From positions 1,011,824-1,043,823 of the forward strand of contig JAWARJ010000001.1 in the NCBI GenBank assembly GCA_038893495.1: a stretch of DNA of 32,000 nt. Reading direction: 5' to 3'. The translations under genes and the position numbers were made by a program. Below the pieces are notes generated by a model. The model searched no databases, had not been told where the DNA came from, and saw only the letters and a list, made by a program, of their open reading frames with translations. Origin of the DNA: Thermoproteus sp. (lineage in GTDB: Archaea > Thermoproteota > Thermoprotei > Thermoproteales > Thermoproteaceae). Below are positions 821-29,847 of the stretch, in pieces; within the stretch, counting starts at the first letter, position 1, and each line of letters starts with the position of its first letter.

Positions 821-1471
821 CTATACGCCTTCGAGCCACCGCCTCAACTCCCCGAGGTCCTTGAAGTTAAGGTCGCCGCGCGTCTTATCGCCAACTATCA
901 CCGTCAAGATCCCCAAGGCCCTGGCGCCCAGATCCACATCGTCGTCGCCAACCATCACCGCCTCTTCAGGCTTGGCGCCAAGCCTCTTCAAGGCGAGGCG
1001 GAACATCAGCCTGTGGGGCTTCCTATATCTAACTATGTCGGAAGTCACCAAGACGTCCACAGAGGCGCCGACCCTCTTCAAGAACTCCTCTATGTAACAC
1101 CTACACGTGATGTTGGAGATTATGGCGGTCTTATACCTACCAGCGGCCCACTTTAAGAACTCAGGCGCGCCGTCTATAGGCGATAGGTGCCTCATCATGG
1201 CGTCGACCAACACCGCGCGTATATCTCGCCAACTCCCTCCCGACAGCGCGGCGATTAGCGCCGCCTGCCCGTCTACAGTTATCTCGGCCCCAGAGGCCTC
1301 CCTGACCGCATTGGCGAGCCTCCTAGCCTCTAGGAAGTACCCTAGGGCCTTCCCAACGTCTACATTCAATACGCGGGAAATGCCGTTAGCGATATCGCTT
1401 AAATAAGAGTCTTCGTCGTCTATTTTGGCGAGAGTGCCGAAGAAGTCTAGAAGCAACGCCTTGATGGCCAT
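821..1471 (-). CDS. HAD-superfamily hydrolase (2-haloacid-dehalogenase-like motif I variant)
   Basis: The track ORF is 821..1540. I trimmed it to the internal ATG at 1471 (MAIKALLLDFFGTL...) because the 23 upstream codons overlap the MMPL gene's 3' end and look non-protein-like. Motif I is DFFGTL (D-x-[YF]-G-T type, lacking the second Asp); motif IV is MVGDDDVD. Confidence 0.75.
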   Translation of the reverse strand: MAIKALLLDFFGTLAKIDDEDSYLSDIANGISRVLNVDVGKALGYFLEARRLANAVREASGAEITVDGQAALIAALSGGSWRDIRAVLVDAMMRHLSPIDGAPEFLKWAAGRYKTAIISNITCRCYIEEFLKRVGASVDVLVTSDIVRYRKPHRLMFRLALKRLGAKPEEAVMVGDDDVDLGARALGILTVIVGDKTRGDLNFKDLGELRRWLEGV

Positions 1472-1512
1472 GTGGCATATATGCCCATTGTTTTTATCAC
1501 TACGGCCGGGGC

Positions 1513-4089
1513 CTAACGTCCGCGGGGCCTGGAGGGCCACCAGTTGTACTTAGCTAGGAGATTCATTATGGCCGGCACTAAGAAAGGCCTCACGATATAG
1601 GCGTCAAAGATTGCCGAAAATGCGACAGTCGCGCCTACTTGTTGGAGGACTGTGAGCTGGGACTGCACTATGGATAGAAAGGCCAGGGCCAGTATGAGCG
1701 CCGCGCCGGTGACTATGGGGCCTGTGGTCACTATGGCGGTCTTTATGGCGGCCCTATCGTCCAATCCTCTCTCTACCTCCTCTCTGATCCTGGTGACTAT
1801 AAATACGTCGTAGTCCGTCCCGACTGCAATCAGCAAACTGGTGAGGACTACCGGCTGGAGCCAGTAGGTGAGCTGGCCCCCTAAGATCTGAAACAATGCG
1901 ATGTTCAACGTGAGCCCCCAAACTAGAGACATCAAGACTGTCGCCACGAGTCTCAACGGCGTCAAGAGGCTCCTAAGCGCCACCATTAAAGTCAATATTA
2001 CAGTTAATAATACTATATATATTTGGAAATTCCAGAAATATAAGTATATATATGTATAATAGACGTGTTTCCAGCCGGCGTCTCCACCTATATACAACAA
2101 GCCGAATTTCCTCAAGGCCGTTAAATTGTTATATACATATAACAATTCATCTGACGTACTTGTTACAGATAACTTTAGTGAAATAATATAATAATTTTCT
2201 CTTGTAAATATAGTATAATTAGTATAGTATGGAAGTTTTGTTATATAGTTTATGACAGTGGAGTTAGGCCTTTGTGTAAAGACTAGATATGTCGTCGAGA
2301 GGGCAGTTACGTTCTTGAAGTAGGTCTGGGCTATATGGAGCGCCTTTTTGCTCTCTATATCTGGCATCGCCGATATGGGATTGGTAGTTATCTTCAAGTG
2401 AGATATAGCGAATAGGGCCAGCGCAAGCGTGGCGACGGTCGCTATCGCTATTATCGTTCTGGACCTCGAAAGGGCGATGTCTACAGCCTTGGCTAAGAAC
2501 TTAGAGCGGCCCTCGTGTAGCCTTATGTCTTCTATCCTTCTGGGCCAAAAAGCCTTGTCGTCTAGGAGGGTCAGCAACGCGGGCGTTGCGGTGAAGGCCG
2601 TCGTTAACACCAACAAGACTGCCAGCGCCAGCGTCAGCCCTATAGTCTGCATGAAGGGCAGTAGCGAAAAGCCGAAGCTACCCAAGGCGAGGCCTGCGAC
2701 TATCGCGCTAGTCAGTATTGCACGCTTGCCGAAACTCAAGACGGTGGAAATCGCCTCGTCGGGCCCCGCCCCTCTATTCCTCTCCTCCGCGTATCTGCCC
2801 AACATCAAGAGGTTGTAGTCCACGCCTAGGGCGAACACTACAGGCGCCGCTATGTAGACCGAAAGGTAGTATGGAGCTATATACGGCGAGATCAAATAGA
2901 CGAGCCCCAGTAGCGCCAGATACGAAAGCCCGACTTCCGCCAAAACCAACAGAGGCGCCACTATCGTGCCGAAGACGAAGAGCAGTATCGCCAACATAAC
3001 TATGGAGGTGGTCTTGTCTATCTCAGGCACTTCTGAAGTCACTATATCCGTAAATTGGGACATAAGCACATCGGTCGACACGGGGACCGCCCAGCTGTAA
3101 TTAAGCCGGGGGGCCCCGCTACCGTTAACTATCACCAATGCGTACTGGTCGCCGTAGAGCAACTGTCTGGCTTGAGTTATTGTGTACATGGTCGGTGGTG
3201 GGTATTCCGTCGTTAAGTTCTGTAGGAGGGCCTCCTTAAACGCGGCGAGGGCCTCGTCGGTCCTATTTACACATAGGATGTAGGGTAGGTAGGGCCTTAG
3301 CTCCGGCGGGAGCTTTGAGGAGAGCTGTAGGAATATGTATTTCTCCACCCCTAGCTCTGTGATGTTTTCGGCGAGACCTATTAGGGACGAATTGAGCCTA
3401 GTGGAGAGAATCCTTTCGGCTATTAGATCTATAGAGCTCTGCGAGGCCCAATTCCTCCATGTTATATTTTGTAGCAACCAACTCAAATTGCCGTATGCCC
3501 TATCTGCGGCTAATCTAATCGCCGTGTCTACGTCGTAGTACCTAGAGTAGTTTCTGTAGTACTCCAAAAAGCGCTCGGTCTGGGGCGTCGATATGTTGAA
3601 TAGGGTGGCTCCATATGTGGCGTATAGGAGCGCCGTCGCGTTGTTACGCGCCGTCTCGTAGGCCTCCTTTAGTTCATCTAGGAGTTTGCACTGAGTATTT
3701 GTAACATTATAAATTCTATTTAAATTATTAAAGAAATAGTTTGTTATATTATTTATTGTATTATTAATTTTATTCCAATATATTTTTTGTGCAGTATATT
3801 GTATAGTGAGTGGCGAAATTATATCATATCCTTCCGAGGACAGCGTTTTGTTCAGCTCGCTTAGTCTGTCCTGTAGGTCGGGACCGTAGACTAATATAAA
3901 TGTTATACTATTATTAGATGTAGATGTATTATTTATTATTTTATTTACTATATTTGGTTTTACATTTTTCGGCATAAGTTTTGATTCTGAATAAACAAGA
4001 ACTCCAAATACTTTGCCCGAATGTATTGCCAGATAGGAGTAGGTAGCCAGCCACAAGGCCAGCAGGGCGTAGGCGAGGAGCTTATTCAC
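1513..4089 (-). CDS. MMPL/RND-superfamily membrane exporter
   Basis: 858-aa ORF with a GTG start. It has an N-terminal TM (LLAYALLALWLATYSYLAI), then a ~330-aa N-X-S/T-rich extracytoplasmic domain, then two multi-TM blocks. Each block carries the MMPL hallmark (GVDYNLLMLGRYAEERNRG; GTDYDVFIVTRIREEVERG). Confidence 0.85.
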   Translation of the reverse strand: MNKLLAYALLALWLATYSYLAIHSGKVFGVLVYSESKLMPKNVKPNIVNKIINNTSTSNNSITFILVYGPDLQDRLSELNKTLSSEGYDIISPLTIQYTAQKIYWNKINNTINNITNYFFNNLNRIYNVTNTQCKLLDELKEAYETARNNATALLYATYGATLFNISTPQTERFLEYYRNYSRYYDVDTAIRLAADRAYGNLSWLLQNITWRNWASQSSIDLIAERILSTRLNSSLIGLAENITELGVEKYIFLQLSSKLPPELRPYLPYILCVNRTDEALAAFKEALLQNLTTEYPPPTMYTITQARQLLYGDQYALVIVNGSGAPRLNYSWAVPVSTDVLMSQFTDIVTSEVPEIDKTTSIVMLAILLFVFGTIVAPLLVLAEVGLSYLALLGLVYLISPYIAPYYLSVYIAAPVVFALGVDYNLLMLGRYAEERNRGAGPDEAISTVLSFGKRAILTSAIVAGLALGSFGFSLLPFMQTIGLTLALAVLLVLTTAFTATPALLTLLDDKAFWPRRIEDIRLHEGRSKFLAKAVDIALSRSRTIIAIATVATLALALFAISHLKITTNPISAMPDIESKKALHIAQTYFKNVTALSTTYLVFTQRPNSTVINYITKLPYYTNYTIFTRENYYIISLKLSVTSTSDELLYVYNNLTALRKFGLLYIGGDAGWKHVYYTYIYLYFWNFQIYIVLLTVILTLMVALRSLLTPLRLVATVLMSLVWGLTLNIALFQILGGQLTYWLQPVVLTSLLIAVGTDYDVFIVTRIREEVERGLDDRAAIKTAIVTTGPIVTGAALILALAFLSIVQSQLTVLQQVGATVAFSAIFDAYIVRPFLVPAIMNLLAKYNWWPSRPRGR

Positions 4090-4095
4090 GAGGCA

Positions 4096-4117
4096 AAAAT
4101 AAGTTAAATAAGTAAAG
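4096..4117. promoter_or_regulatory. Shared AT-rich divergent promoter spacer (MMPL <-> ABC operon)
   Basis: The 34-nt gap contains a tandem AAATAAGT-T-AAATAAGT. It is the only TATA-like sequence available for both divergent genes. Confidence 0.4.
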
Positions 4118-4123
4118 TATGTT

Positions 4124-5260
4124 GTGGCTTACCGCCATATCGCCATGTTGGCGCTCAGCGACTTAAAAGCCAGGAGGACGCGCTATGTGCTTCTGGCCGT
4201 AGTGATAGCCATAGGGGCAGCCTTAATGGTGGCCTTGAGCACCATAAGCGTCGGCGCCAAGATTTATGTACAGGACCAATTATATCAAATATTTCCAGCT
4301 GATATACTTATTTATTCTAACTCTATAGATATACCATATGCATTTATATCTACATTAAGGACATTGCCGTATGTACAAAACGCCGAGCCTGTAGTCATGT
4401 TAACAGGCTCTCTGGGCAATAAGACCGTAACCATATTGGGGGTTCCCCTCAGCGATATCGGCTATTTCGATGTGGAGCTACAAGAGGGGAGGCTACCTCA
4501 CGGCAGTGGCGAAGCCGTCGTGGAGGCTGCTCTCGGCTTACAGCCGGGGCAGACGGCGACCATAGCGGTGTATCAGAGCACCATCGCTCCTCCGACCGAC
4601 CTCAAGGTGACTGTGGTGGGCGTTATGAGCAACTTGTTGAAGGGCTTTATAGGGCCTATGAGCCTCAACCTAGTGGTCGTGCCGCTGGACTGGCTACAAC
4701 AACAATTGGGCCTCGGCGATTTTTACAACATGGTCTTTATAACTCTGAAGGATAAGTCGCTCATACAGCCGTTAGCCCAGGCTCTGAAGGCCAGATTTCC
4801 CCAGGCCGAGGTGTACACCCAACAGAGCGCTCTGTCCACTGTAGACAGGGTGTTCAACATGTTGAATATCTTCTTTTTGGTTATCGAGGTGATAGCGTTT
4901 TTGGCCGGCGCCTTGACTACCTTCACCGTGATGTCGATCACTGTGAGGGAGCGTATGGGGGAGGTGGCGTTGTTGAAGGCGACCGGCATTTCGGGTAGAG
5001 ATATAGCGCTGACCTTCATGTTGGAGGTATTAGTAGTGGGGCTCGTGGGCGGGATCGTCGGCGGCGTGGCCGGCTATTTCGGCGCCATAGGCGTCAAGTA
5101 TTTGTTGATAAAAGCGGGCTATTCCTTCGATGTGCCAATACCCTTCATGCCGTCCTTCTTTGCGCTCGGCGTAGTCCTCTCGTTGTTGGTAGCTCTGGCC
5201 GGCGCCTTGATGCCCATATATAGGGCCGTGTCGTTAAGGCCTCTTGAAATATTGAGATGA
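4124..5260 (+). CDS. ABC transporter permease, FtsX/MacB type
   Basis: 378 aa. TM1 (YVLLAVVIAIGAALMVALSTISV), a ~200-aa extracytoplasmic domain, then three C-terminal TMs (4-TM MacB/LolC/FtsX topology; VRERMGEVALLKATGISGRDI loop). The start is ambiguous: GTG 4124 or ATG 4145 (MLALSDLKARRTRY). It overlaps the downstream ATPase gene by 4 nt. Confidence 0.85.
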   Translation: MAYRHIAMLALSDLKARRTRYVLLAVVIAIGAALMVALSTISVGAKIYVQDQLYQIFPADILIYSNSIDIPYAFISTLRTLPYVQNAEPVVMLTGSLGNKTVTILGVPLSDIGYFDVELQEGRLPHGSGEAVVEAALGLQPGQTATIAVYQSTIAPPTDLKVTVVGVMSNLLKGFIGPMSLNLVVVPLDWLQQQLGLGDFYNMVFITLKDKSLIQPLAQALKARFPQAEVYTQQSALSTVDRVFNMLNIFFLVIEVIAFLAGALTTFTVMSITVRERMGEVALLKATGISGRDIALTFMLEVLVVGLVGGIVGGVAGYFGAIGVKYLLIKAGYSFDVPIPFMPSFFALGVVLSLLVALAGALMPIYRAVSLRPLEILR

Positions 5261-6021
5261 CCGACGCGGTATATCTAGAAAACGTACATAAGGTCTATCG
5301 GACCGCCGCAGGCGAGGTGCATGCGTTGAGGGGAGTTACTCTGAGGATACCTAAAGGCGCCATGGTGGCGTTCATGGGCCCCTCTGGGTCAGGCAAGACG
5401 ACGCTTTTGAATATCATATCGTCTCTCGACAAGCCCACCAGCGGGAAGGTGATAGTACTCGATACGGATGTGACGAAACTAGACGAAAAGAGCCTCGAGA
5501 GGTTCAGACTGCACAAAATAGGGTATTTATTCCAGTCGTACAACTTAGTGCCCTACCTCACGGCCTTGCAGAACGTCGAACTGCCTATGTTGGCCGCCGG
5601 TATGCCTAGAGATCTAGCTAAAGCTAAGGCCAAGTTGTTGTTGAGGCTGGTGGGCCTCGAGGACTCAGCCGACAGGCTCCCCATACAGCTGTCCGGCGGC
5701 ATGCAACAACGCGTAGCTCTGGCCCGCGCGCTCGCCAACAGCCCCGAGCTTTTAATACTAGACGAGCCTACCTCCAATATAGACCTAGACAATGCCTCTA
5801 TTATACTCAGCTTAATTCTGGCTCTCAATAAGATTTGGGGGAGCACAGTGCTGATAGCCACACACGACCCTGACGTGGCGGCCGTAGCGGACAAGGTCTA
5901 TACGGTCAGAGGGGGCTACGTGACGGACGGCGGCGTGCCTAAAGGCGAGATAAAAATCGATGTGGACAAGGCGAAAGAGATTTATGAAAAGATTAGGGCT
6001 ATAGATTCGGCATGGCAATAA
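5257..6021 (+). CDS. ABC transporter ATP-binding protein (MacB/LolD-like)
   Basis: Walker A GPSGSGKTT, signature LSGGMQQR, Walker B LLILDEPT, H-loop IATHD. Confidence 0.95.
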   Translation: MTDAVYLENVHKVYRTAAGEVHALRGVTLRIPKGAMVAFMGPSGSGKTTLLNIISSLDKPTSGKVIVLDTDVTKLDEKSLERFRLHKIGYLFQSYNLVPYLTALQNVELPMLAAGMPRDLAKAKAKLLLRLVGLEDSADRLPIQLSGGMQQRVALARALANSPELLILDEPTSNIDLDNASIILSLILALNKIWGSTVLIATHDPDVAAVADKVYTVRGGYVTDGGVPKGEIKIDVDKAKEIYEKIRAIDSAWQ

Positions 6022-7853
6022 GGGCAGTAATTTTGACGCTACTAATCGCGGCGTTGGCGTGGACCGCCGAGCCCACTCTGCTTATTTCATCTACGGCGTC
6101 CTATAGCGGCTCTATTTCTACTACATATCAATATATGTACTTCGTTGTGAATAATTCATCCAAGCCTCTAGAGTTTTTTGGACATATAGTGCCGCCCTAC
6201 GGAGCAAGTCTCATTTATGTGCCCGTCAACGGATCATATCCCCCTCCAATTGCTATATTCTACAATATAACCTATATTAATTCATCATTAATAAATAATA
6301 TATTGTACTGTAATAATAACTCTATTATAACAATTGATATAAAAATAAAAAATTATATGCCCTTCGAAGTCCCCGTAACTATATTAATCCAAAAGACGTC
6401 TGGCATAGACTTTATCAGCAACACTACGCCGTCGGGAATAGAATCCCTAGGGGGCTCTACGATATACCAATGGACCTTCCTCGTCGCGGACAGCCGCACG
6501 TTTTCGGTGTCCTATAGGATAAGAAATTTCGGCGATTTCGGCGCGGTCAGCCTGCCGCCTGTGGAGATCATATCCACTATAGATCTATCTGGCTATATCG
6601 ACCAGACAGAACAATCTATTGCTTTATTAAATAATACTTATAACTATCTGAATAATTTAACATATGCAGTAAATATATTCAATAATGTAGTATATAACAC
6701 TACAAATAATCTTGATAACCTAGTAAGGCTGTTAAATTTGAGCTCCACGGCATTTAGGGAGGGCGTCAGGGGGCTTAACGCCTCGCAGTATGTAATATAT
6801 GCGTTAAACGCCCAGCTGTCGGCGATGGCCTCCTCGTTAATGGGAGTAGCGTCTACTCTAAATAGAAGCCTCCTATTAGTCCAGTACGAATACGCCTATT
6901 TAGTGACTCTATCCAACGCTCTGGCGGCCCAGGCGACGGCCATAAACGCCTATGAGAATTCGCTCTCGACGACAGTAGCGACGCTTAACTCCATAGAGGG
7001 CAACCTCGCAACTATTTATTCTTCCCTACAAAATATAGAAAATTCTATCAATTCAATTTATTTAAATCTTTTATATCTAAAACAAAAAATTAATCAGATA
7101 AAATCTAATAATACATTAATTGAAAACGCTACTGAGGGACTAAACAGGCAACTAGATTACGCCATAGCGGTGGTACAGAGCGCCCAGTCGACTATAAGCT
7201 CGGCGGAGGCCTCCGTAGGAGCATTGATGAATATAGTCTCCAACACGAAAAACGCGCTTATAAAGATAGGCGGCCAGTTGGGAGAGGTCGAGGGCGTCCT
7301 CAACCAGACGGCCATAGCAACTAAACAGAACGCCACCGCCATGCTCGAAGAACTGCCGCCTGTGATACTTAACGCGTCGAAGGCCTTGACGTATATAGCC
7401 AATAATCTCACCTTGACGGCGAGCCAAGTGGGCCAGATGGCAGGCCCTATAAACAGCGGCGTCAAATACTTAACGTCGGCGGCATCTATGTTGTCGTATA
7501 CGGCCGACGAGATAGAGGCCGTCTCTAGCGCCATGAAGGGCGAACTGCCCTATATAGGTCTAGTAGATTCAATTGTTTCTAATTATAGATATAATATCAC
7601 AAAATCTATCCAAAGGTCTCAATATTTTATTTCTATAGCAAATACCTATAAAAATATATATGGAACTGGCTCTATTAGATATAGTATGACTATAAGCCTT
7701 CCCACAGCCGTAAACCCATCAAAGTTTATGTTTAATATAACCACGCCGGCCGCATCTCAGGGGAGCGGAGGCAATATAAATTCTATATATTTTCTATTAA
7801 TAATTATAATTGGTATATTAGCTACAATTTCTATTATATTGAAAATTAAATAA
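6012..7853 (+). CDS. Secreted, C-terminally membrane-anchored, N-glycosylation-sequon-rich helical-repeat surface protein (function unknown)
   Basis: 613 aa with an N-terminal signal-like segment (AVILTLLIAALAWTA) and a C-terminal TM (IYFLLIIIIGILATISIILKIK). I hand-counted about 20 N-X-S/T sequons. The central region is a long N/Q/S/A/L-rich helical segment. The start overlaps the ATPase stop by 10 nt, suggesting translational coupling. Confidence 0.75.
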   Translation: MAIRAVILTLLIAALAWTAEPTLLISSTASYSGSISTTYQYMYFVVNNSSKPLEFFGHIVPPYGASLIYVPVNGSYPPPIAIFYNITYINSSLINNILYCNNNSIITIDIKIKNYMPFEVPVTILIQKTSGIDFISNTTPSGIESLGGSTIYQWTFLVADSRTFSVSYRIRNFGDFGAVSLPPVEIISTIDLSGYIDQTEQSIALLNNTYNYLNNLTYAVNIFNNVVYNTTNNLDNLVRLLNLSSTAFREGVRGLNASQYVIYALNAQLSAMASSLMGVASTLNRSLLLVQYEYAYLVTLSNALAAQATAINAYENSLSTTVATLNSIEGNLATIYSSLQNIENSINSIYLNLLYLKQKINQIKSNNTLIENATEGLNRQLDYAIAVVQSAQSTISSAEASVGALMNIVSNTKNALIKIGGQLGEVEGVLNQTAIATKQNATAMLEELPPVILNASKALTYIANNLTLTASQVGQMAGPINSGVKYLTSAASMLSYTADEIEAVSSAMKGELPYIGLVDSIVSNYRYNITKSIQRSQYFISIANTYKNIYGTGSIRYSMTISLPTAVNPSKFMFNITTPAASQGSGGNINSIYFLLIIIIGILATISIILKIK

Positions 7854-8047: not shown

Positions 8048-8599
8048 GTGGACGAGTGCGAAAAGGTAAATGAGCACATAGCGGATAGGGGCTTTAAGGT
8101 GGTCGAGAGGAGACGCGACTTCTTATACGCGGCGCTGGGCGGCCTGTACGTATCCTTTTGGTGTCCCGAGAGGAGCCACATATTCGACGTAGATCCCCTG
8201 GAGCTTGCGGAGGGCTTAAAGCTGTCCGCCAGCGATGTGCTAATAGTAGTCGCCTATAGGCCGTATCTGATAATAGACGAACTCCAGAGCGTTGTAGATA
8301 GGATACATAGATGGTATGGGAGGGACTTCGGCGTGAAAATCATAGGCGTTAACGCCTCCGACCTAGAGGCTGGGCTGGAGGAGGCGGTGGGCCACGCCAT
8401 GGCCTATAGGCCTTTCAAGATAGGGCAGGGCGTCGAGACGGGCGAGTTGTGTCCCAACTGTACGAAGTCGCCCCTGAGGATTTACGTCTCCGAGAGGCTC
8501 TTCTCGGCTAAATACAAGTCTATGGTGAGCCACCTGATATTCGCCTGCCCCTCCTGCGGCTTGAGGATCAGGAGAGTTGAAATGCTCAGCCAAATATAG
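8048..8599 (+). CDS. Hypothetical protein with C-terminal zinc ribbon
   Basis: 183 aa with a GTG start ~20-29 nt downstream of the TATA-like CTATATATAAT (8019-8029). The C-terminus has CPNC...CPSC (a four-Cys ribbon). Codon usage looks like the neighbouring genes. Confidence 0.6.
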   Translation: MDECEKVNEHIADRGFKVVERRRDFLYAALGGLYVSFWCPERSHIFDVDPLELAEGLKLSASDVLIVVAYRPYLIIDELQSVVDRIHRWYGRDFGVKIIGVNASDLEAGLEEAVGHAMAYRPFKIGQGVETGELCPNCTKSPLRIYVSERLFSAKYKSMVSHLIFACPSCGLRIRRVEMLSQI

Positions 8600-18025: not shown

Positions 18026-19612
18026 GTGACCATTACCTACTCCTACGAGGCGCTTCCTGTAGCTGAATGGTTTAGGAGGAATAAGGAGATAGCGGGCTTC
18101 CAGAACCCCGCCAGGGCGTTGTACCAGACCGTGAGGGAGCTCGTTGAGAACAGCCTGGACGCCACAGAGCCTTACGGCATATTGCCCAACATCACCATAT
18201 CGATAAAGCCGTTTGATGAGTCTAAAAGTTGGTTCTCTATATATGTAGAGGATAATGGCGTCGGGATACCCGGCCACGAGATACCGAACGTCTTCGGGCG
18301 GGTCTTCTACAGCTCTAAGTATAAGATCAAACAGCATAGAGGGGTCTTCGGCCTGGGCCTCAAGATGGTCGTCCTGTACGCACAGAGCACGACTAACAGA
18401 CCCCTCTCGGTCAGATCCGCCACGGTTAAGTCGGACAAAATATATGAATATAAATTGATGATTGATACAACTAAGAATGAACCTATTATAGTAGATGTTA
18501 AAGAATATGATAATAAATATAGATGGCACGGCACTGCGGTCAAAGTCGTCATAGAGGGCAATTGGTTGAACTCCAAGAAGAGGGTGGAGGAGTACCTCAA
18601 GAGGACCGCCATAATTTCTCCCTACGCCGAAATATACTTCAAGGGGCCCGACATGGAGATGTTGTTGAAACGTAGGACTATAAGGATGCCCTCCCCGCCT
18701 AAGGAGGGCCTCCCGCACCCGAAGAGCGTAGACGTCGATACGGTAAAGCAGATGATAGCCGAGAGCCCCAAGTCAACCGTGGCGGAGTTCCTCATGAATA
18801 ACTTCGATGGAGTCGGCGAGGGGCTCGCCAAATCGTTTTCTGAATGGGCCGGCCTAGACCCGAACAGGCCCGTAGGCTCTCTAAGCCAAGAGGAGATAGT
18901 TCTACTCGTGGAGAAGATGAAGGCGTATGAGGGGTGGAGGCGGCCGAGGGCCGAATGGCTCTCCCCCGCCGGCCCTGAGTTGCTCGAGGTGGGAGCCAAG
19001 TCCATATTGAACGCCGAGGCTGTCTTCGCGGTTACGCGGAAGCCGAGTAGCTATTCGGGCCACCCCTTCATAATAGAGGCGGCGATAGCTTGGGGCGGCC
19101 AGATAGTCCCGGTCGAAAAGCCCATTTTGCTTAGATATGCCAACAAGATACCGCTACTCTACGACGAGGGGGCCGACGTGGCCAGGAAAGTGGTCGATGA
19201 GTTCAACTGGCAGAACTACAAGGTGAAGTTCCCCGCACCGCTCGCCGTGATTATACATATATGTTCGACAAAGGTGCCGTACGCCTCTGCGGGGAAGGAG
19301 GCGATAGCCGAAATTCAGGAGATAGAGGACGAGATGAGGCTGGCGTTGAGGGATGCGGCGAGGAAATTGAGGATATACCTCTCCAGAAAGGAGCGGGAGC
19401 TGGAGCTGTTGAATAAATACGTCTCTCTAGCGAAATATGTCGACGAAATCGCGACGGCTCTTAACGGCATAACCAACATAGATAAGGAGAAGATTTCCAA
19501 GTCCCTATATAGGCTTATAGAGAAGAAATTGGGCACCACCGTAGAGGAGATAGCAAAACATGTGGCGTCTATGGCCGTAAGCCAGGAGGGCGTGGAGCAA
19601 CAGGCCGCGTGA
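18026..19612 (+). CDS. top6B: DNA topoisomerase VI subunit B
   Basis: GHKL Bergerat fold (RELVENSLDA, DNGVGIP, GVFGLGLK). 528 aa. It overlaps top6A by 4 nt. Confidence 0.95.
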   Translation: MTITYSYEALPVAEWFRRNKEIAGFQNPARALYQTVRELVENSLDATEPYGILPNITISIKPFDESKSWFSIYVEDNGVGIPGHEIPNVFGRVFYSSKYKIKQHRGVFGLGLKMVVLYAQSTTNRPLSVRSATVKSDKIYEYKLMIDTTKNEPIIVDVKEYDNKYRWHGTAVKVVIEGNWLNSKKRVEEYLKRTAIISPYAEIYFKGPDMEMLLKRRTIRMPSPPKEGLPHPKSVDVDTVKQMIAESPKSTVAEFLMNNFDGVGEGLAKSFSEWAGLDPNRPVGSLSQEEIVLLVEKMKAYEGWRRPRAEWLSPAGPELLEVGAKSILNAEAVFAVTRKPSSYSGHPFIIEAAIAWGGQIVPVEKPILLRYANKIPLLYDEGADVARKVVDEFNWQNYKVKFPAPLAVIIHICSTKVPYASAGKEAIAEIQEIEDEMRLALRDAARKLRIYLSRKERELELLNKYVSLAKYVDEIATALNGITNIDKEKISKSLYRLIEKKLGTTVEEIAKHVASMAVSQEGVEQQAA

Positions 19613-20715
19613 CTATGTCGCGCGCCGAATTCCTCTCTAAGCTCGAGGAGTGGGCCAAGAGCATAACGGAAGATATATTGAGCCTTAGGGAGCCCGTCTT
19701 GGAGATACCGTCCAGGACGCTCTCAAATACAATCTGGGACGAGAAGAACAGGATATTGAAGCTAGGGCCTGAGAAGATACACCGTCGGTTCCTCGACGTA
19801 AAGGAGTCTAGGCGCTTCATGCAGACAATGTTGATGTTGAGACTTATAGTGGACGCCATAAGGGCCGACGTCTATCCGACTATACGTGACCTCTATTATA
19901 ACGGCAAACACACGATTATCTTCAAGGACTTCTTGGGGAGGACCCATAGAGAGAACACTTGGGATGAACAAGCCGAGTCCAACGGAGTTATAGAGGACAT
20001 AGAAGTTGCGACAAACGTTCTTAGGGAGGAGATGGGGATAAGCGCCGACGTCAAGGGCAAGGTCGTGGGCCCCATAGTAGTTAGGTCTCAGGGATATGAA
20101 CTCGACGCCAGTAAGTTCGGCGAGACGGCGTTGAGCCTGCCCGTCAATGTGGACGCCCTCGAGATAGTTAAAGTCGAGGCCGCCTACGTTTTGGTGATAG
20201 AGAAGGACGCTATATTTCAGAGGTTGGTCAGAGAGAAGTTCTGGTCGCAGGAAAACGCGATATTGATAACCGCTAAGGGCATGCCCGACAGAGCCACTAG
20301 GAGGTTCGTCAAGAGGCTTAACGAAGAATATAAACTGCCCGTATACGTGTTGACCGACGGCGATCCCTACGGGATCTATATATATTCAGTATATAAGAGC
20401 GGCTCCATAAAGCTGAGCTATGAAAGCGAGAGGTTGGCGACGCCTAAGGCGAAGTTCTTAGGGGTGGCGCCTCTAGATATAGAGAGGTATAAGATACCGG
20501 ACCAGTTCGTGATCAGGGCGACGGATAGAGACATAAAGAGGGCGCAGGAGCTGTTGAAATATCCGTGGTTCCAAAACGACATATGGAGGAAAGAACTTGA
20601 ATACTTCTTAAAGACCAAGAAGAAGGTAGAAATAGAGGCTCTTTCGGCTCATGGACTGAAGTATTTACATGATTACATTAAAGATAAAATAAAAGGAAAT
20701 AAATTTATTGATTAA
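19609..20715 (+). CDS. top6A: DNA topoisomerase VI subunit A (Spo11 homologue)
   Basis: 368 aa. Toprim region (VLVIEKDAIFQRL, LTDGDPYGIYI) and a 5Y-CAP region (TIRDLYYNG). Confidence 0.95.
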   Translation: MTMSRAEFLSKLEEWAKSITEDILSLREPVLEIPSRTLSNTIWDEKNRILKLGPEKIHRRFLDVKESRRFMQTMLMLRLIVDAIRADVYPTIRDLYYNGKHTIIFKDFLGRTHRENTWDEQAESNGVIEDIEVATNVLREEMGISADVKGKVVGPIVVRSQGYELDASKFGETALSLPVNVDALEIVKVEAAYVLVIEKDAIFQRLVREKFWSQENAILITAKGMPDRATRRFVKRLNEEYKLPVYVLTDGDPYGIYIYSVYKSGSIKLSYESERLATPKAKFLGVAPLDIERYKIPDQFVIRATDRDIKRAQELLKYPWFQNDIWRKELEYFLKTKKKVEIEALSAHGLKYLHDYIKDKIKGNKFID

Positions 20716-20829: not shown

Positions 20830-21837
20830 ATGGAAGGCGAGGTCCGTAAGGTTCAGCTCACGGGCGGAGCCACCCTCATAGTCAGCCTCCCTAAGGAGTG
20901 GGCTCGACGAACCAACTTATCGCCGGGAGATGAAGTCCTCATAGTGCCTCAGCCCGACAACACGCTGGTTTTAATACCGCGGAAGTTGGGCAAGCGCGCC
21001 TCTCTGACTGTGGAGTTGAATGTAGACGACAAAATGTCCGTTGAGGAGCTAGAGAAGGTCTTCATGGCGGTCTATATAGCTGGCGCCGAGGTCATATCCG
21101 TTAAGTTCGCCCCTGGGGCTACCCAATATAGGAAGCACCTAAAGGACTTCGTCAGGAGGAGGGTTATAGATATGGAGATAACAGAGGAGTCCAGCGACAG
21201 ACTCGTCATACAGGCGATGGTCTCCGCCACGGAGCTTGCAGTAAAAGACGTCACGGTCAAGATGTTGAAGCTGGCCGACAACATGTTGGCGGACCTCATA
21301 AGAGGTCTAGAGGCCGACAACATGGAGCTCCTAAAGGACGTAGCCGAGAGGGACGACGAGGTAGACAGACTGTACTGGCTTATTGAGCGCCAACTCAAAA
21401 GGGCGGCCATGTCCCGCTACATAATGTTGGAGTTGAAGGTGGAGGATCCCCGCGATCTAGTTGAATACACAATAATAGCCAAATCCATAGAGAGGATTGC
21501 CGACCACATATGTAAAATAGCCTATATCAACCAGGAGGAGAAGATAGACTTGAGGGTCGTCAAGCCCATCTTGGAGAGGGCGATTGAATATATGGGAGCC
21601 GTGCTGGACGCCCTTAGCGGTAGCCTGGACGACGCGAAGCTGACGTGGCTCTACAGGGAGGTGAGCGAGTGGGCGCTAAAAATACGTAAAGAGGGCATAC
21701 CGTCAGATCCGGCTACCTCTCTAGCTAAAGACAGCGCCATAAGGATAAATGAATACATAGGTGACATCTTGGAATCTCTCCTACATATAAGGCTTAAGAC
21801 CTTCCAAAAGTTGGGCGAAGGGGCTCAACTACAATAG
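20830..21837 (+). CDS. AbrB/SpoVT-domain + PhoU-domain phosphate uptake regulator homologue
   Basis: N-terminal swapped-hairpin domain (VQLTGGATLIVSLPKEWARRTNLSPGDEV) and a PhoU-like helical repeat (ERDDEVDRLYWLIERQ; IAKSIERIADHICKIA). Confidence 0.85.
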   Translation: MEGEVRKVQLTGGATLIVSLPKEWARRTNLSPGDEVLIVPQPDNTLVLIPRKLGKRASLTVELNVDDKMSVEELEKVFMAVYIAGAEVISVKFAPGATQYRKHLKDFVRRRVIDMEITEESSDRLVIQAMVSATELAVKDVTVKMLKLADNMLADLIRGLEADNMELLKDVAERDDEVDRLYWLIERQLKRAAMSRYIMLELKVEDPRDLVEYTIIAKSIERIADHICKIAYINQEEKIDLRVVKPILERAIEYMGAVLDALSGSLDDAKLTWLYREVSEWALKIRKEGIPSDPATSLAKDSAIRINEYIGDILESLLHIRLKTFQKLGEGAQLQ

Positions 21838-23851: not shown

Positions 23852-25775
<1,924 letters not shown>

Positions 25776-25782
25776 CGATGCG

Positions 25783-25790
25783 AATATAAA
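25783..25790 (+). promoter_or_regulatory. TATA-like element upstream of the 58-aa ORF and arcadin-4
   Basis: AATATAAA lies ~23 nt upstream of GTG 25810, in the 34-nt gap after arcadin-2. Confidence 0.4.
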
Positions 25791-25809
25791 CTGCGGTTCA
25801 TATATTGTT

Positions 25810-25986
25810 GTGGATCTCTTTAAGATAGTAGAGGAAGAAGTGAGGAGGGGCCTTGAGGGCTCCGACGTTGAGATAGTCCTGAGCCTAATAGAGGCGTACA
25901 GGTCCTCGGGCCCGAAGGGCGCTAGGGACAAACTGAGAGAAATACTCTCACGATGGGGAGTAGATGTGGGCGATATCGAGGATTAA
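25810..25986 (+). CDS. Untracked 58-aa ORF inside the Arcade cluster
   Basis: Manual translation gives VDLFKIVEEEVRRGLEGSDVEIVLSLIEAYRSSGPKGARDKLREILSRWGVDVGDIED*. The GTG is ~23 nt from the centre of the TATA-like AATATAAA (25783-25790). Codon usage is typical (AGG, ATA, GAG). It overlaps the arcadin-4 start by 23 nt and is below the track's length cut-off. Confidence 0.45.
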   Translation: MDLFKIVEEEVRRGLEGSDVEIVLSLIEAYRSSGPKGARDKLREILSRWGVDVGDIED

Positions 25987-28363
25987 ACTAAAGGACTTCA
26001 AGGTATATTCAGGCGAGTACGAACTCGTATTGTCGCCAGTAACCGCCATAGTGGGTAGAGTCGGCGCCGGCAAGTCCTCTCTACTTCAAGCAATAGAGTT
26101 CGCCCTATTTGGAAGGGAGATGGAGACCAGACAGAGGATAGCGAAGCTCGTCGATTTGATAAACATCAATTCGGACAGCGCCTGGGTCGAGCTGGAACTG
26201 ACCGACGGCACCGAGAAGGCCGTAATTAGGCGGAGCCTAAACAGGAGGGGACGTAGCCGCCTAGAGTTGAGGATAAGGGGAGAGAAGCTTTCGGATCTAG
26301 ACGCCGAGGAGAAGCTCAAAGAGATCTCAGGCATCAGTAGCGAGGACTACGATAGAGTAATATATATATCACACTACGCGCTAGAGGACTTCATCCATGG
26401 CGACAAGATAAGAAGGACCTCGCTAATAGATAAAATACTTCAGATCGATATACTAGACAATATACAAAAGTTAATAAATAAATCTATAAAGAACTTATTA
26501 GAAGAAACTGAAAAAATTAGGATAAAAATAGCATATTATGAAAAGTATAGAGATATATTAGAGAAATATGGAAGCATATCCAAGATAAAAGAAGTAAAGA
26601 CATCTTTAGAGAGAGAATTAGAGGAAATTTCTAGACAAGAAAATAATCTATTAACTAGATATAAACAACTTCTAGAAGATAGAAAAAAATACATCGATAA
26701 AATATCAAGGCTACAAGATAAAATAACGGCGTACTACAAGGCCAAATCGGAGCTAGAACTCCTTGAAGAATATGGATATAGCTACAACACAGAGCTAGCC
26801 CAGATAGACGAACTGAAGGACAGATTTCTCGGAATCTTAGCCGAATTCGAACATATAGTGAGCCCGCAGATAGTAGAGGCTATCTCCAAGGAGTCCGACC
26901 CTGCCAGACTGGCTGAGCTCTTTAACGACGCCTATAAGGAGCTCCTAAAGGCCAAGTCGTCTCTAAGCGAACTTTCCTCCTCAATAGAGGCACAACGAAA
27001 TATGTTGCAAACTAAACTAAATGAGTTAAATATAGAAATATCTAAGGTGAGAGCCAAATTAGAACAACTAGATGTCCTATATAAAAAATTTAAGGACTTA
27101 GAATCTAAATACGGGACTATTGAGGAGGTGAGGAGGAAGTTGGAGGCGGCGAGAAGTAGGGCGCAGGAACTGGAGAGGAAGACGCGCTACATCTCGTCTT
27201 TGAGGTTCATACTGTCTTACGCCCTAGAGGCCGGCGTCGAGACGTGTCCTATTTGTGGATCTAAATTGGATAGGAAGGCCGCGTCGTCTAGGCTTGAAGA
27301 GCTGGAGAGAGAATATTCGCAAGAGCTCGCCCAGTTCGAAGAGGCGAAGGGAGAATTGGAGGCGCTAGAGGGGGCATATAGGGATATGGAGTCTCTGCTG
27401 AGCTCCGTCTCTGAGTACTTAAAGGCCAGGGAGGAGCTAGAGAGGCTGAGCGCCGAGGCCGAAAAGATAAAGACGAAACTGGACCAGGCCGCCAAATCGT
27501 CGGCTCAAATATCTCGCCGCCTCTCGCTCCTCTCGGGCTTCTTGGAAGAGGTCACGCCGGAGGTGGTCGAGGAGGTCGTCAAGAGGTACAATAAGGCCCT
27601 CCGGGTCAAACAGCTCCGCGAGGTCTTGGAGTCGGTAGAGCTCGAGTTGAGAAGTCTTGGCGTAAGCGAGGCCGTTTTGGAGTTAGAGGAGGAGTTCAGA
27701 AGGGTCTCTGAAGATCTGGACAAAATAAGGAGGAGGAAGGCCGATATACATAACGAATTGGCGAGGCTATCGGAGGTGCTGGCCAATGTGGACGAGGAGT
27801 TCGAAACCCTTAAGGCGAAATTAGAGAGATTTATTTATGTCCATAATAGACTCAATGATATTTATAATAAATTAAATGTAATAAAGCAGAATGTAAGATT
27901 GAAGGTAATTCAAGAGATACAAGACGAGTTGTGGAACAACTTCCTCAAGATATATCCCTATAAGGACATCACGGCGGTGCGGCTGGCCCTTAGAGACAAC
28001 GCATATGAGGTAGAGGCCGTTACGGCTGACGGCGCCACTATAGGCATATCGAAGTTGAGCGACGGACAGCGGCTGGCGGTAGCCCTCTCGTTGGTTATAT
28101 CTATGCGTAAGCTGTTAGGCCCCAAGCTGGGCTTTCTGCTACTGGACGACCCCCTGCCGTATGTAGACCCCAATGTGCGCTCGGCGCTGGCCGGCCTGAT
28201 AGCGTCTTTAAGCAAGGAGTACCAAGTGGTGGTGGCGACTCAGACCGAAGACTTGCCCAGAGAGATAGCCTCCAACGGCGTCGACGTAGCTGTAGTGGAG
28301 CTGTCTAGGGCCGGGAACAAGCCCGAAGTGACGACTAAACATATATTTGGGAGAAAAGATTAG
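25964..28363 (+). CDS. rkd-4: Arcadin-4 candidate: SMC/Rad50-like coiled-coil ATPase
   Basis: 799 aa. N-terminal Walker A GRVGAGKSSLLQAIEFALFG, a long K/E/L coiled coil, a central CPICG, and C-terminal signature LSDGQRLAVALSL with Walker B FLLLDDPL. No mre11/herA/nurA genes are adjacent. Confidence 0.75.
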   Translation: MWAISRIKLKDFKVYSGEYELVLSPVTAIVGRVGAGKSSLLQAIEFALFGREMETRQRIAKLVDLININSDSAWVELELTDGTEKAVIRRSLNRRGRSRLELRIRGEKLSDLDAEEKLKEISGISSEDYDRVIYISHYALEDFIHGDKIRRTSLIDKILQIDILDNIQKLINKSIKNLLEETEKIRIKIAYYEKYRDILEKYGSISKIKEVKTSLERELEEISRQENNLLTRYKQLLEDRKKYIDKISRLQDKITAYYKAKSELELLEEYGYSYNTELAQIDELKDRFLGILAEFEHIVSPQIVEAISKESDPARLAELFNDAYKELLKAKSSLSELSSSIEAQRNMLQTKLNELNIEISKVRAKLEQLDVLYKKFKDLESKYGTIEEVRRKLEAARSRAQELERKTRYISSLRFILSYALEAGVETCPICGSKLDRKAASSRLEELEREYSQELAQFEEAKGELEALEGAYRDMESLLSSVSEYLKAREELERLSAEAEKIKTKLDQAAKSSAQISRRLSLLSGFLEEVTPEVVEEVVKRYNKALRVKQLREVLESVELELRSLGVSEAVLELEEEFRRVSEDLDKIRRRKADIHNELARLSEVLANVDEEFETLKAKLERFIYVHNRLNDIYNKLNVIKQNVRLKVIQEIQDELWNNFLKIYPYKDITAVRLALRDNAYEVEAVTADGATIGISKLSDGQRLAVALSLVISMRKLLGPKLGFLLLDDPLPYVDPNVRSALAGLIASLSKEYQVVVATQTEDLPREIASNGVDVAVVELSRAGNKPEVTTKHIFGRKD

Positions 28364-28367
28364 GGCG

Positions 28368-29009
28368 ATGCAAGAATACTGCGGAGTTTTCGTCGTGTCG
28401 GAACTCGGCGAGATTGGCGTCTATAAGGGCGACAATTACGTCGTGGCTAAAGTGGAGCCCTACGGCCTCGCCTTCAACGACTCGGGGAAGGTCCTAGTCC
28501 TGTACGACACCGTCAACCTATATGAGAACTTAATGGAGTTCATATCTAAAGAGTTGAATGGATGTAGAAGGCTGTCGTTAGAACTGGACGCGAGGGAGAT
28601 AAAGGTGGACTCCATAAAGGCCTTGTTCAAGGTGTTCGACTACACGGCGTTGTTGTACCTACTGGCCCTCAAGTCCCGCCCGTCTTTAGTCCACGTGGTC
28701 GGCTATAGGGGACGCCAACGGCGCCCCGCTCAGAGCATAAGTAAAATCATGGCGAGAGCAAGCCCCATACCGCCCGAATACGTGGCTAAGAGGCCGCCGC
28801 CCTTCGCCCTTCCTGTAGACGTCAAGGAGGTCTCCATCGCGGCCAGAAGGACTTCTGGGGAGAGATATAAAGTGCTTGTCAAGATAGAGGGGGCGGCCGT
28901 AATGACCAAATCTAAAGTGGTGGAGACTGAGGACTTCTACAGGCGTGTAGTGGGCGGTTTGGTCTCGTCGTTGCCTCACCTAAGCTGGGTCGAATACGCG
29001 TTCCTCTAG
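28368..29009 (+). CDS. Hypothetical protein coupled to arcadin-4 (possible further arcadin)
   Basis: The ATG lies 5 nt after the arcadin-4 stop (the track ORF begins at TTG 28347). 213 aa with no recognisable motif. Confidence 0.6.
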   Translation: MQEYCGVFVVSELGEIGVYKGDNYVVAKVEPYGLAFNDSGKVLVLYDTVNLYENLMEFISKELNGCRRLSLELDAREIKVDSIKALFKVFDYTALLYLLALKSRPSLVHVVGYRGRQRRPAQSISKIMARASPIPPEYVAKRPPPFALPVDVKEVSIAARRTSGERYKVLVKIEGAAVMTKSKVVETEDFYRRVVGGLVSSLPHLSWVEYAFL

Positions 29010-29066
29010 TCAGTGCTCCAGACCCTCTTCATCGGTCGGCGGGCTCACCAGTGGTCATCACTACGC
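29008..29066 (-). ncRNA. Candidate C/D box sRNA
   Basis: Minus strand reads GUGAUGA-CCACUGGUGAGC-CCGC-CGAC-CGAUGA-AGAGGGUCUGGAGCA-CUGA. The C box (29055-29061) and D box (29010-29013) are perfect and ~52 nt apart, with a C'-like CGAUGA between them. It sits in a 74-nt convergent gap. Weaknesses: the D' box is poor and the D guide spacer is 15 nt rather than ~12. Confidence 0.3.
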
Positions 29067-29083
29067 CTATTGGGGCGCATCTA

Positions 29084-29812
29084 TTAATGCTTACGTATGG
29101 GCTCCGCCTTGTCCCAAAGGTAGTTGAAATAAGTCTTGGCTATATCCAACAGATACCGCTCGTTGCCGTGTATGCCCAACAGACCGTCGCCGTGTTTTAC
29201 GACGAGCACCGCCGAATTGCCGAGGGCCCCTCCGCCGAACATATCGTCTAGCGCTCTGACGTCTATACGCGGAGGCAGATCTATATAGCCGACAAGCCTC
29301 TTGGTGGAGAGAAGCTTCACCTCTATCCTTTTCGATTCCTCCTTTATGGTCTCCATTATGCTCGGCGTGATCAATTCGGGGTAGGGGAGCGCCACGTAGA
29401 CCGCCCCATCGCTGGACTTTATGACCTCCTCTATTAGGTTGTGGACCTTCTCGCCTCTAATCAGCGCTATAAAGGTAGTGGAGGCCCCGCCGTATCTAGC
29501 CTCATAGAGGGCCTGAAGCATATCTATTTGTTCCTTCAGCGCTCTGAGCGCAGTAGACATAAACGAAACCAGGCCCCTATAGACTTCAAGCGGGGGCTTG
29601 GCGGCATATCGGGCGGGGCGCCCCTCCAAACGCTCCACAAAGCCCCACGCCTCCAGTGCATCTAGGTGTTGATATATCTTCGTGTAAGGCGTATTGACCG
29701 CCTCGGCTATTTCTCTAGCCGTAAGCGGCCCGCGCTCAACCAGCAGGGCGTATATCGCGAGGTCGCGGTCGTCGAGGCCCAAGGCCTTAAGCGCCGACTT
29801 TATTCTGTTCAC
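29084..29812 (-). CDS. TrmB-family transcriptional regulator
   Basis: N-terminal TrmB-type wHTH (LGLDDRDLAIYALLVERGPLTAREIAEAVNTPYTKIYQHLDALEAWGFVERLEGRPARYAA). 242 aa, GTG start. Confidence 0.85.
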   Translation of the reverse strand: MNRIKSALKALGLDDRDLAIYALLVERGPLTAREIAEAVNTPYTKIYQHLDALEAWGFVERLEGRPARYAAKPPLEVYRGLVSFMSTALRALKEQIDMLQALYEARYGGASTTFIALIRGEKVHNLIEEVIKSSDGAVYVALPYPELITPSIMETIKEESKRIEVKLLSTKRLVGYIDLPPRIDVRALDDMFGGGALGNSAVLVVKHGDGLLGIHGNERYLLDIAKTYFNYLWDKAEPIRKH

Positions 29813-29816
29813 GCAA

Positions 29817-29834
29817 TTAACGAAATTCCGTTAA
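29817..29834. promoter_or_regulatory. Imperfect palindrome, candidate TrmB-family operator
   Basis: TTAACGAAATTCCGTTAA has perfect TTAACG/CGTTAA arms and matches its reverse complement at 16 of 18 positions overall. It lies between the TATA region and the regulator's own start codon. Confidence 0.4.
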
Positions 29835-29847
29835 AAAATTTTTAAAG
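29831..29847. promoter_or_regulatory. Palindromic bidirectional TATA region (TrmB-like / Tes-like genes)
   Basis: TTAAAAAATTTTTAAAG lies 19-35 nt from GTG 29812 (minus strand) and 21-37 nt from ATG 29868 (plus strand). Confidence 0.5.

Follow-up and report, generated by a model that had tools for sequence, protein, structure and literature searches.

The stretch of DNA analysed here, hereafter the window, covers 32,000 nucleotides (nt) of a Thermoproteus sp. genome (contig JAWARJ010000001.1, positions 1,011,824 to 1,043,823), and the system in question is a group of four genes at its positions 1513-7853. They encode an exporter of the MMPL family, the permease and the ATPase of an ATP-binding cassette (ABC) machine of the FtsX/MacB kind, and a protein of 613 amino acids (aa) which is predicted to form a long helical hairpin and is called here the hairpin protein. 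The MMPL gene occupies positions 1513-4089 of the minus strand (858 aa). On the plus strand are located the permease gene (4124-5260, 378 aa), the ATPase gene (5257-6021, 254 aa) and the hairpin protein gene (6012-7853). The coordinates of all four genes were those of the list of open reading frames (ORFs); the hairpin protein was studied on an AlphaFold2 (AF2) model. An earlier, sequence-only reading had placed the MMPL gene opposite a three-gene plus-strand unit, across an AT-rich spacer of 34 nt, and these coordinates were reproduced exactly.

The same reading had noted overlaps within the three-gene unit, and they were recovered: the permease and ATPase genes share 4 nt (5257-5260), and the ATPase and hairpin protein genes share 10 nt (6012-6021). 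Overlapping junctions recurred beyond the genome of the window, as -4/-10 in the Thermoproteus loci and as -10/-4 in the Pyrobaculum loci. Judging solely by these overlaps, the permease, ATPase and hairpin protein genes would be co-transcribed. The divergent spacer between the MMPL and permease genes (4090-4123, assigned to no strand) contains 8 G+C in its 34 nt, that is, 76% A+T. Some database entries use an alternative permease start, the ATG at 4145, which gives a protein of 371 aa and a spacer of 55 nt. The orthologous divergent spacers measured 32-82 nt and contain a pair of TATA-like boxes in opposed orientation, as seen in L004, L005, L006 and L019 (L numbers designate the loci compared in this work). 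From these features the 34-nt spacer presumably holds two back-to-back archaeal promoters, with leaderless or near-leaderless transcripts.

The two pumps

Taking into account its profile matches (Pfam MMPL 2e-63, TIGR00833 4e-59), the 858-aa protein is an RND transporter (HAE-2-like) of the MMPL family, and the nearest solved structures were those of MmpL4 and MmpL5 (1e-36). The Pfam MMPL model matched in two stretches, as is looked for in a protein of two homologous halves with about 6 TM helices apiece and outer domains behind TM1 and TM7, and the hydrophobic clusters (aa 357-567 and aa 681-816) each come after an outer segment. The first outer domain is large, covering approximately aa 23-357 with 18 sequons (N-x-S/T), and the second is smaller, covering approximately aa 570-680 with 4 sequons. 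The sequon enrichment of the window protein reached a z-score of 6.1, and that of the outer domains across orthologues ranged from 3.6 to 8.5. The motifs GVDY (G422-V-D424-Y425) and GTDYD (G757-T-D759-Y760-D761), which we take to be the Asp-Tyr proton-relay pairs of transmembrane (TM) helices 4 and 10, as in MmpL3, were invariant in 5 MMPL orthologues, down to 34% identity. The cysteines at aa 134 and aa 273, both in the large first outer domain, were likewise invariant in these five orthologues, and they may form a disulfide in a helical insert of about 200 residues (aa ~95-300).

The MMPL gene is overlapped at its 3′ end, by 28 nt, by a gene for a HAD-family phosphatase (821-1540, minus strand; Pfam Hydrolase 8.5e-17, HAD_2 1.2e-13). 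This gene adjoins the MMPL gene in the Thermoproteus and Pyrobaculum loci, with a 60-aa ORF between them in Pyrobaculum, and it is absent from loci of the L006 type. It may be co-transcribed with the MMPL gene, and its membership of the module is uncertain.

Concerning the ABC machine, the claim of a four-TM FtsX/MacB permease with an outside domain of about 200 aa, accompanied by its own ATPase, was borne out by Pfam, NCBIfam, AF2 and Foldseek. The permease matched MacB_PCD (6.7e-16, profile positions 3-206 of 207) and FtsX (2.3e-14) in Pfam, and its hydrophobic segments lie at aa 18-47, 242-272, 293-324 and 337-371. In the AF2 model, built from 38 orthologues (predicted local distance difference test, pLDDT, of 81.8), helices 18-56, 233-276, 291-330 and 343-370 correspond to four long TM helices, the number typical of type VII ABC permeases. 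Between TM1 and TM2 is located the outer domain, of mixed alpha/beta structure, at about aa 57-232 (aa 61-232 in the AF2 model). Foldseek placed the permease with MacB (6.9e-21), LolE (template-modelling score, TM-score, of 0.72) and the pneumococcal MacB-like proteins Spr0694/5 (0.66-0.67), FtsX appearing not before rank 50. The isolated outer domains of MacB, LolE and YknZ were also matched, with target-normalised TM-scores of 0.5-0.6 in alignments of about 205-215 columns. Because of this placement with MacB, LolE and Spr0694/5, the permease as modelled is a type VII ABC protein with a full Porter and Sabre outer domain of the MacB/LolE type.

The outer domain of the permease, of about 190 residues, carries 0-1 sequons in all 23 orthologues (L001-L024), and for the neighbouring MMPL and hairpin proteins the enrichment is 2-7-fold; the permease outer domain may need a bare, sequon-poor surface.

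The ATPase matched ABC_tran (Pfam, 1.9e-35), and the best NCBIfam models were MacB (3e-59), LolD (4e-57) and FtsE (2e-55). All its motifs are intact: Walker A (GPSGSGKTT), the signature (LSGGMQQR), Walker B (LLILDEPT) and the H-loop (ATHD). As far as can be judged from the motifs, both pumps look functional.

The hairpin protein

Nothing above the curated thresholds of Pfam or NCBIfam was found for the hairpin protein, whose family has no name. When 1.84 billion representative proteins were searched exhaustively with a profile, only 21 matched at E<=1e-3. The closest database proteins, 100% and 89% identical, are from Thermoproteus, and a word-indexed homology search recovered the same 10 Thermoproteus proteins whether it was started from the 613-aa protein or from a 7-sequence cross-genus alignment. 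The names that JGI gives to some homologues, "archaellum component FlaC" and "prefoldin subunit 5", look like coiled-coil artefacts and were set aside.

The protein begins with a signal-peptide-like segment, MAIRAVILTLLIAALAWTAE (aa 1-20, positions 6012-6071, plus strand; hydrophobic over aa 1-25), whose pattern is kept in the orthologues and which would be cleaved. An all-beta domain follows (aa 22-191, positions 6075-6584, plus strand), a sandwich of immunoglobulin (Ig)-like or macroglobulin (MG)-like type in which AF2 placed only strands, with pLDDT of 50-87; Foldseek gave for it partial matches to AP2 mu2 and to the MG-type sandwiches of complement. The ascending helical arm (aa 192-361, positions 6585-7094, plus strand) is a single helix of 170 residues in AF2. 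After a 6-residue turn at the tip, KSNNTL (aa 362-367, positions 7095-7112, plus strand), which contains a sequon in 12 of the 22 orthologues, the descending arm runs back (aa 368-550, positions 7113-7661, plus strand) as three near-continuous helices with a periodicity of 3.5-3.56. Two short strands and a low-confidence, disordered linker rich in Gly and Ser (aa 568-589) lead to the C-terminal TM anchor (aa 585-613, positions 7764-7850, plus strand), where the Kyte-Doolittle maximum was 3.01 and AF2 placed a helix at aa 590-612. In the alignment, the orthologues terminate in a basic tail. A sortase- or archaeosortase-type C-terminal signal was considered and rejected, as no conserved motif precedes the anchor.

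Because of the signal-peptide-like N-terminus, which the protein has besides its C-terminal helix, it is not strictly tail-anchored and would be a candidate type I membrane glycoprotein. The description of the 613-aa product as a tail-anchored, sequon-rich helical protein was therefore right as regards the sequons, the helices and the C-terminal helix, and has to be modified as regards the mode of anchoring.

The AF2 model of the hairpin protein was obtained with an alignment of 9 sequences, all from Thermoproteus, with pLDDT of about 65-87 in the ordered parts, and it contains approximately 360 helical residues. The model predicts an antiparallel coiled-coil hairpin with arms of 170-183 residues around the turn. 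Considering 170 residues at about 0.15 nm each, the arm length is about 25 nm. The hairpin would be fully extended, and in the model the C-terminal strands would rejoin the beta domain. With hydrophobicity averaged over the 22 orthologues, the heptad of the ascending arm (arm 1) was unbroken, the power at the 3.5-residue period being 172 against 12 at 3.6; the hydrophobic positions are a, d and partly e/g. When the model was compared with the PDB by Foldseek, the best shape matches were the long antiparallel hairpins of chemoreceptors, and the others were generic (SMC/Rad50, dynein stalks and plain beta-sandwiches); no adaptor, EnvC, EsaA or Mce structure was retrieved in this search.

The length of the protein is conserved: of 21 Thermoproteaceae orthologues (583-621 aa), one has 583 aa and twenty have 601-621. 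The BLAST alignment with the hairpin protein of P. ferrireducens showed 0 gaps across 514 residues at 31% identity, so the hairpin length is probably constrained. This suggests that the length matters, in a coiled coil which would tolerate substitutions and not insertions or deletions.

The protein contains 21 sequons, compared with 11.3 +/- 2.9 in shuffled sequences, and every orthologue was enriched (z = 3.3-9.8). In arm 1, 115 of the 131 occurrences of the sequon Asn fall at heptad positions b and c, with one site at g and none at e, so that one stripe of this helix would be left without predicted glycans. Conservation is highest halfway along the hairpin (aa 241-320 and 421-460), where the best-conserved sequons are also found: N256 and N440 are present in 22/22 orthologues, and N242, N284, N431 and N454 in 20/22. 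The tip-proximal third showed the lowest conservation and is nearly sequon-free, with the exception of the sequon of the tip itself.

Conservation of the gene block

Thermoproteus and Pyrobaculum are rod-shaped archaea of hot springs. About 20 distinct Thermoproteaceae loci were compared, retrieved by the hairpin protein, by the permease and by a scan of a genome collection with the permease alignment. The permease, ATPase and hairpin protein genes were contiguous in all the loci that extend far enough, except L013, and the MMPL gene was divergent and adjacent in all of them except in P. oguniense. Outside Thermoproteus, the ATPase was 55-60% identical to that of the window, the permease 46-50%, MMPL 39-48% and the hairpin protein 23-32%. 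Three loci (L006, L021 and L025) keep the block among entirely different flanking genes, and for this reason the block is not merely part of a frozen neighbourhood. The synteny between the ABC genes and the 613-aa gene, which had been proposed as a check of the module in related genomes, was thus kept down to 23% identity and in unrelated flanks, with the one exception of L013.

In Pyrobaculum and in Thermoproteus sp. AZ2 (L002, L004 and L005) the hairpin protein gene is followed directly by a radical-SAM/HMPTM gene, TrmB, an SMC-like gene and the crenactin/arcadin cluster. In the window, the radical-SAM/TrmB/SMC-like/crenactin segment is located at 23861-31592, in the opposite orientation and about 16-24 kb from the hairpin protein gene. 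Because the same genes lie there reversed, a segment of about 22 kb is inverted in the window, with one breakpoint right after the stop codon of the hairpin protein gene.

Distant homologues of the hairpin protein (E about 1e-6) showed the same architecture, namely, signal peptide, beta domain, long sequon-rich helices and C-terminal anchor, in gene contexts of several kinds. In L029 the MMPL gene is divergent from the ATPase and hairpin protein genes, and no FtsX is present. In L030/L031 there are FtsX, ATPase and hairpin protein genes and no MMPL gene. In Thermocladium (L032/L035) the ATPase and hairpin protein genes overlap by 47 nt, with neither FtsX nor MMPL nearby. L033 has only a partial, convergent ABC gene downstream, and in L034 a gene for a membrane protein takes the place of the ATPase gene upstream. 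In all the ATPases that adjoin the distant homologues, MacB or LolD was the best match. The tightest recurring link is that between the hairpin protein and a MacB/LolD-type ATPase, which the permease and the MMPL exporter join in different lineages. As judged from gene content, these loci show the four-gene form to be specific to Thermoproteaceae, and such recurring links are difficult to account for if the proteins do not act together. The Thermocladium homologues are longer, with 684-702 aa, and are paired with the ATPase alone (L035, 7205-10088).

Two other genes of the window are worth recording. An ORF of 183 aa (8048-8599, plus strand), downstream of the hairpin protein gene, had no Pfam or NCBIfam match and is conserved only in the closest Thermoproteus genomes; its two CxxC pairs towards the C-terminus (CPNC...CPSC) look like a zinc ribbon. 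Another, of 335 aa (20830-21837, plus strand), combines a MazE/AbrB-type domain at the N-terminus with a PhoU domain and adjoins the genes of topoisomerase VI A/B (18026-20715).

Comparison with known systems and possible mode of action

The kinship of the 613-aa protein to MacA/HlyD adaptors or to YhgE/Pip helical proteins, raised by the sequence-only reading, was looked for in Pfam, in NCBIfam and with a family profile against the PDB, and none was found. In 7 members of the hairpin family there was no HlyD/MacA, YhgE/Pip, MCE or hydrolase domain, even at E<=1. The family profile, run against all PDB sequences, retrieved designed and generic coiled coils, and no adaptor was among the best 60 of its 86 matches (E<=1). 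The only recurrent match was to the helical model Mce4_CUP1, seen below threshold in 5 of the 7 members (best E 0.0014; 16.5 bits for the window protein against a cut-off of 32.6), and these matches are probably compositional.

By comparison with MacAB(-TolC), Spr0693-0694-0695 and YknXYZ, the cluster has the same type VII permease with Porter and Sabre, the same separate ATPase of MacB/LolD type, and a membrane-anchored partner whose beta domain lies close to the membrane and whose alpha-helical hairpin is directed outwards. The archaeal protein differs from MacA/HlyD in having no sequence relationship with them and neither lipoyl nor beta-barrel domains; its anchor is C-terminal instead of N-terminal, and its hairpin emerges from a beta-sandwich, whereas the alpha-hairpin of HlyD/MacA sits in the lipoyl domain. 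The archaeal hairpin is presumably some 2.5 times as long as that of MacA. Unlike MacAB-TolC, it belongs to a host with an S-layer (surface layer) only, which has no outer membrane and no TolC.

The FtsEX systems with EnvC, PcsB, CwlO or RipC also combine a type VII ABC machine with an extracytoplasmic antiparallel coiled-coil hairpin (PMC7668044), a likeness which on the archaeal side comes from a model of moderate confidence. EnvC is a hairpin of this kind, gripped by two FtsX outer domains and relaying ATP-driven motion (PMC7668044). The hairpin protein differs from the FtsEX partners in that it has no LytM, CHAP or NlpC/P60 domain in Pfam or NCBIfam and in that it is membrane-anchored; moreover, FtsEX has an FtsX-type outer domain and peptidoglycan as its target, whereas the archaeal permease is of MacB/LolE type and there is no peptidoglycan.

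A long projecting coiled coil is also found in the MMPL pumps MmpL4/MmpL5, which like the archaeal pair are accompanied by a single-TM, Ig-like protein, MmpS4/MmpS5 (PMC12501195). The hairpins of MmpL5 form a tube of 13 nm, stabilised by MmpS5 with its TM helix and Ig-like domain (PMC12501195). In MmpL5 the hairpin is inserted in the transporter, whereas the archaeal hairpin, of about 25 nm and about twice that of MmpL5, is carried together with the Ig-like base and the C-terminal anchor by a separate protein, whose gene belongs to the divergent ABC operon. The hairpin protein showed no detected homology to MmpS or to the coiled coil of MmpL5. The Mce, PqiB and LetB tunnels are similar in joining an ABC machine, a beta domain and a long helical projection across the envelope space for hydrophobic cargo; they have an MCE domain and a permease of MlaE/YrbE type, whereas the archaeal system has no MCE domain and its permease is of type VII. 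The YhgE/Pip/EsaA proteins have an N-terminal TM helix, an outer domain made of helices and several C-terminal TM helices, in contrast to the signal peptide and one C-terminal TM helix of the hairpin protein.

Among archaeal proteins, SlaB of the Sulfolobales (an S-layer anchor) resembles the hairpin protein by its signal peptide, beta-sandwich, long coiled coil and C-terminal TM helix and by the wide space under the S-layer (bioRxiv 10.64898/2026.08.21.746120). The order of the domains along the stalk differs, the cluster described here encoding a two-armed hairpin whose base comes back to the beta domain, and the gene partner is an ABC pump and not an S-layer gene. In SlaB the coiled coil consists of one helix that continues to the anchor. 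The S-layer of Pyrobaculum reaches about 37 nm from the membrane on pillars, and these are formed by a self-anchored S-layer protein of 292 kDa with homologues in Thermoproteus (bioRxiv 10.64898/2026.08.21.746120). Since the S-layer lies at this distance, a rod of 25-30 nm would nearly span the space under the lattice. The idea that the hairpin protein is itself the S-layer protein or a SlaB-like anchor was ruled out, the S-layer protein of Pyrobaculum being a different, self-anchored one. The absence of any described archaeal system with this architecture, as the sequence-only reading had stated, agreed with our searches of the literature on archaeal MacB, MMPL and coiled-coil systems and of the T. 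tenax genome paper, in which no description of such a system was found.

Next to the observed gene order, overlaps, folds, catalytic and proton-relay motifs, conserved length and conserved sequons, we place a tentative reading, somewhat short of probable, in which the four genes make up a single conserved envelope module in the Thermoproteaceae and the hairpin protein is the extracytoplasmic partner of the ABC machine and its stalk or adaptor. In such a module a dimeric ABC machine of MacB/LolCE type (type VII) would use ATP hydrolysis to drive its outer Porter and Sabre domains. Its extracytoplasmic partner would be the co-translated hairpin protein, membrane-anchored and N-glycosylated, with the beta-sandwich base beside the membrane and the antiparallel coiled coil of about 25 nm projecting into the wide space between membrane and S-layer. 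The hairpin protein, probably oligomeric, would then act as a stalk or adaptor that receives or guides hydrophobic or lipid-linked material, which the ABC machine, with the proton-driven MMPL pump working alongside it, would draw out of the outer leaflet. By analogy, it would take the role that in bacteria falls to the hairpin barrel of MacA, to the coiled-coil tube that is part of MmpL5 itself and to the Mce/Pqi needles. As hydrophobic or lipid-linked molecules of the outer leaflet are the usual load of both families, the MacB/LolCE-type ABC machines and the MMPL pumps, export or delivery of such material along or through an oligomeric hairpin stalk is favoured. The MMPL exporter might conceivably supply lipid or glycan cargo, as had been suggested, which is purely conjectural. 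The proposal that the helical protein is a driven extracytoplasmic partner or adaptor finds support in the gene context and in the predicted hairpin shape, and none in homology to known adaptors.

Several points weigh against this stalk or adaptor reading. The hairpin model is of moderate confidence (mean pLDDT 67.5, predicted TM-score, pTM, of 0.40), coming from its 9-sequence, single-genus alignment. The best-conserved zone lies about 7-19 nm above the base of the hairpin, higher than a MacB-type outer domain should reach, and this conserved mid-hairpin surface may serve something other than the pump. In FtsEX-EnvC the tip of the hairpin enters the permease, whereas the tip of the archaeal hairpin is the end farthest from the anchor. 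The gene linkage also has its exceptions. An uncultured member of the Thermoproteales (L013, 6995-9939) has no ATPase gene, the hairpin protein gene coming directly after the permease gene with a 4-nt overlap. No MMPL gene is present within 7 kb upstream in P. oguniense TE7 (L017), and MMPL is likewise not adjacent in Thermocladium or in the L030 lineage. Thermocladium lacks FtsX as well as MMPL nearby, and L033 and L034 have no ATPase gene directly upstream. Finally, physical contact, oligomeric state, transport direction and substrate are what we infer.

It is fairly unlikely that the MacB-type and MMPL proteins are independent efflux or detoxification pumps and that the hairpin protein is a structural spacer, an adhesin or a virus-facing protein that merely shares the operon. 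Its contact with the pumps is only inferred, it evolves much faster than they do (23-32% against 46-60% identity), like exposed surface proteins, and the distant homologues L033 and L034 have no ATPase gene upstream. On the other hand, the linkage with a MacB/LolD-type ATPase extends from Thermoproteus to Thermocladium and two other deep lineages, the start/stop overlaps are conserved and the block survives rearrangements on both sides; a chance sharing of the operon is not expected to persist at 23% identity.

A regulator similar to FtsEX-EnvC appears rather unlikely. In it the ABC machine would flex the hairpin and send a signal outwards, for instance so that the rigid S-layer lattice is opened or remodelled while the rod-shaped cells grow or divide, and no transport would take place. 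In all the characterised FtsEX partners the coiled coils are antiparallel and share an a/d/e heptad pattern (PMC7668044), close to the a, d and partly e/g pattern of arm 1. The height of the conserved zone on the hairpin would bring it to the stalks of the S-layer rather than to a pump, and in Pyrobaculum and Thermoproteus sp. AZ2 the crenactin/arcadin shape cluster is no more than about 5 kb from the module. This proximity is lost in L006 and in the window, however, and the hairpin protein is devoid of any enzyme or activator domain (LytM, CHAP, NlpC/P60). The outer domain of the permease is of the full MacB/LolE type and not of the reduced FtsX type, which accords with the low rank of FtsX in Foldseek, and the conserved MMPL neighbour would be left without explanation.

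The hairpin protein is very unlikely to be a cargo, its C-terminal anchor being extracted as by LolCDE and the protein then released or handed over to the S-layer: the resemblance of the permease to LolE, its closest match by TM-score, a tight translational coupling that would suit a dedicated substrate, and an anchor made of a single helix behind a flexible Gly/Ser linker are outweighed by the absence of a conserved sorting motif ahead of the anchor, by the basic cytoplasmic tail after the helix, typical of stable anchoring, and by the MMPL linkage of L029, which, having no FtsX, would remain unexplained; moreover, we know of no precedent for a type VII ABC machine that extracts a full TM helix.

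Returning to the hairpin protein as stalk or adaptor of the ABC machine, a bolder form of this proposal, which we consider rather improbable, is that oligomers of the hairpin protein build a glycosylated stalk or conduit of about 25-30 nm linking the ATP-driven and the proton-driven pumps to the underside of the S-layer. If this were true, a machine that carries material or force across the envelope would have been described for the first time in an archaeon with nothing but an S-layer; its origin would be independent of the bacterial tripartite pumps, the Mce needles and the MmpL5 tube, and the conserved length of the hairpin would correspond to the width of the space below the S-layer.

Nearly all that is understood of type VII ABC machines and MMPL pumps comes from bacteria, in which cargo or force is passed on to partners in a periplasm that a wall or an outer membrane encloses, and little is known about the use that archaea make of the wide space under their S-layers. 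The cluster described here is a defined and conserved candidate system of three or four proteins, in organisms for which the geometry of the S-layer was solved very recently, and the size of the hairpin protein matches the space under that layer. If no complex is formed, the hairpin protein would still represent a new, lineage-restricted family of archaeal surface glycoproteins. If the complex does form, the solution of a pump plus a long helical projection would have arisen again in archaea, and the module would offer a concrete target for cryo-electron tomography and genetics.

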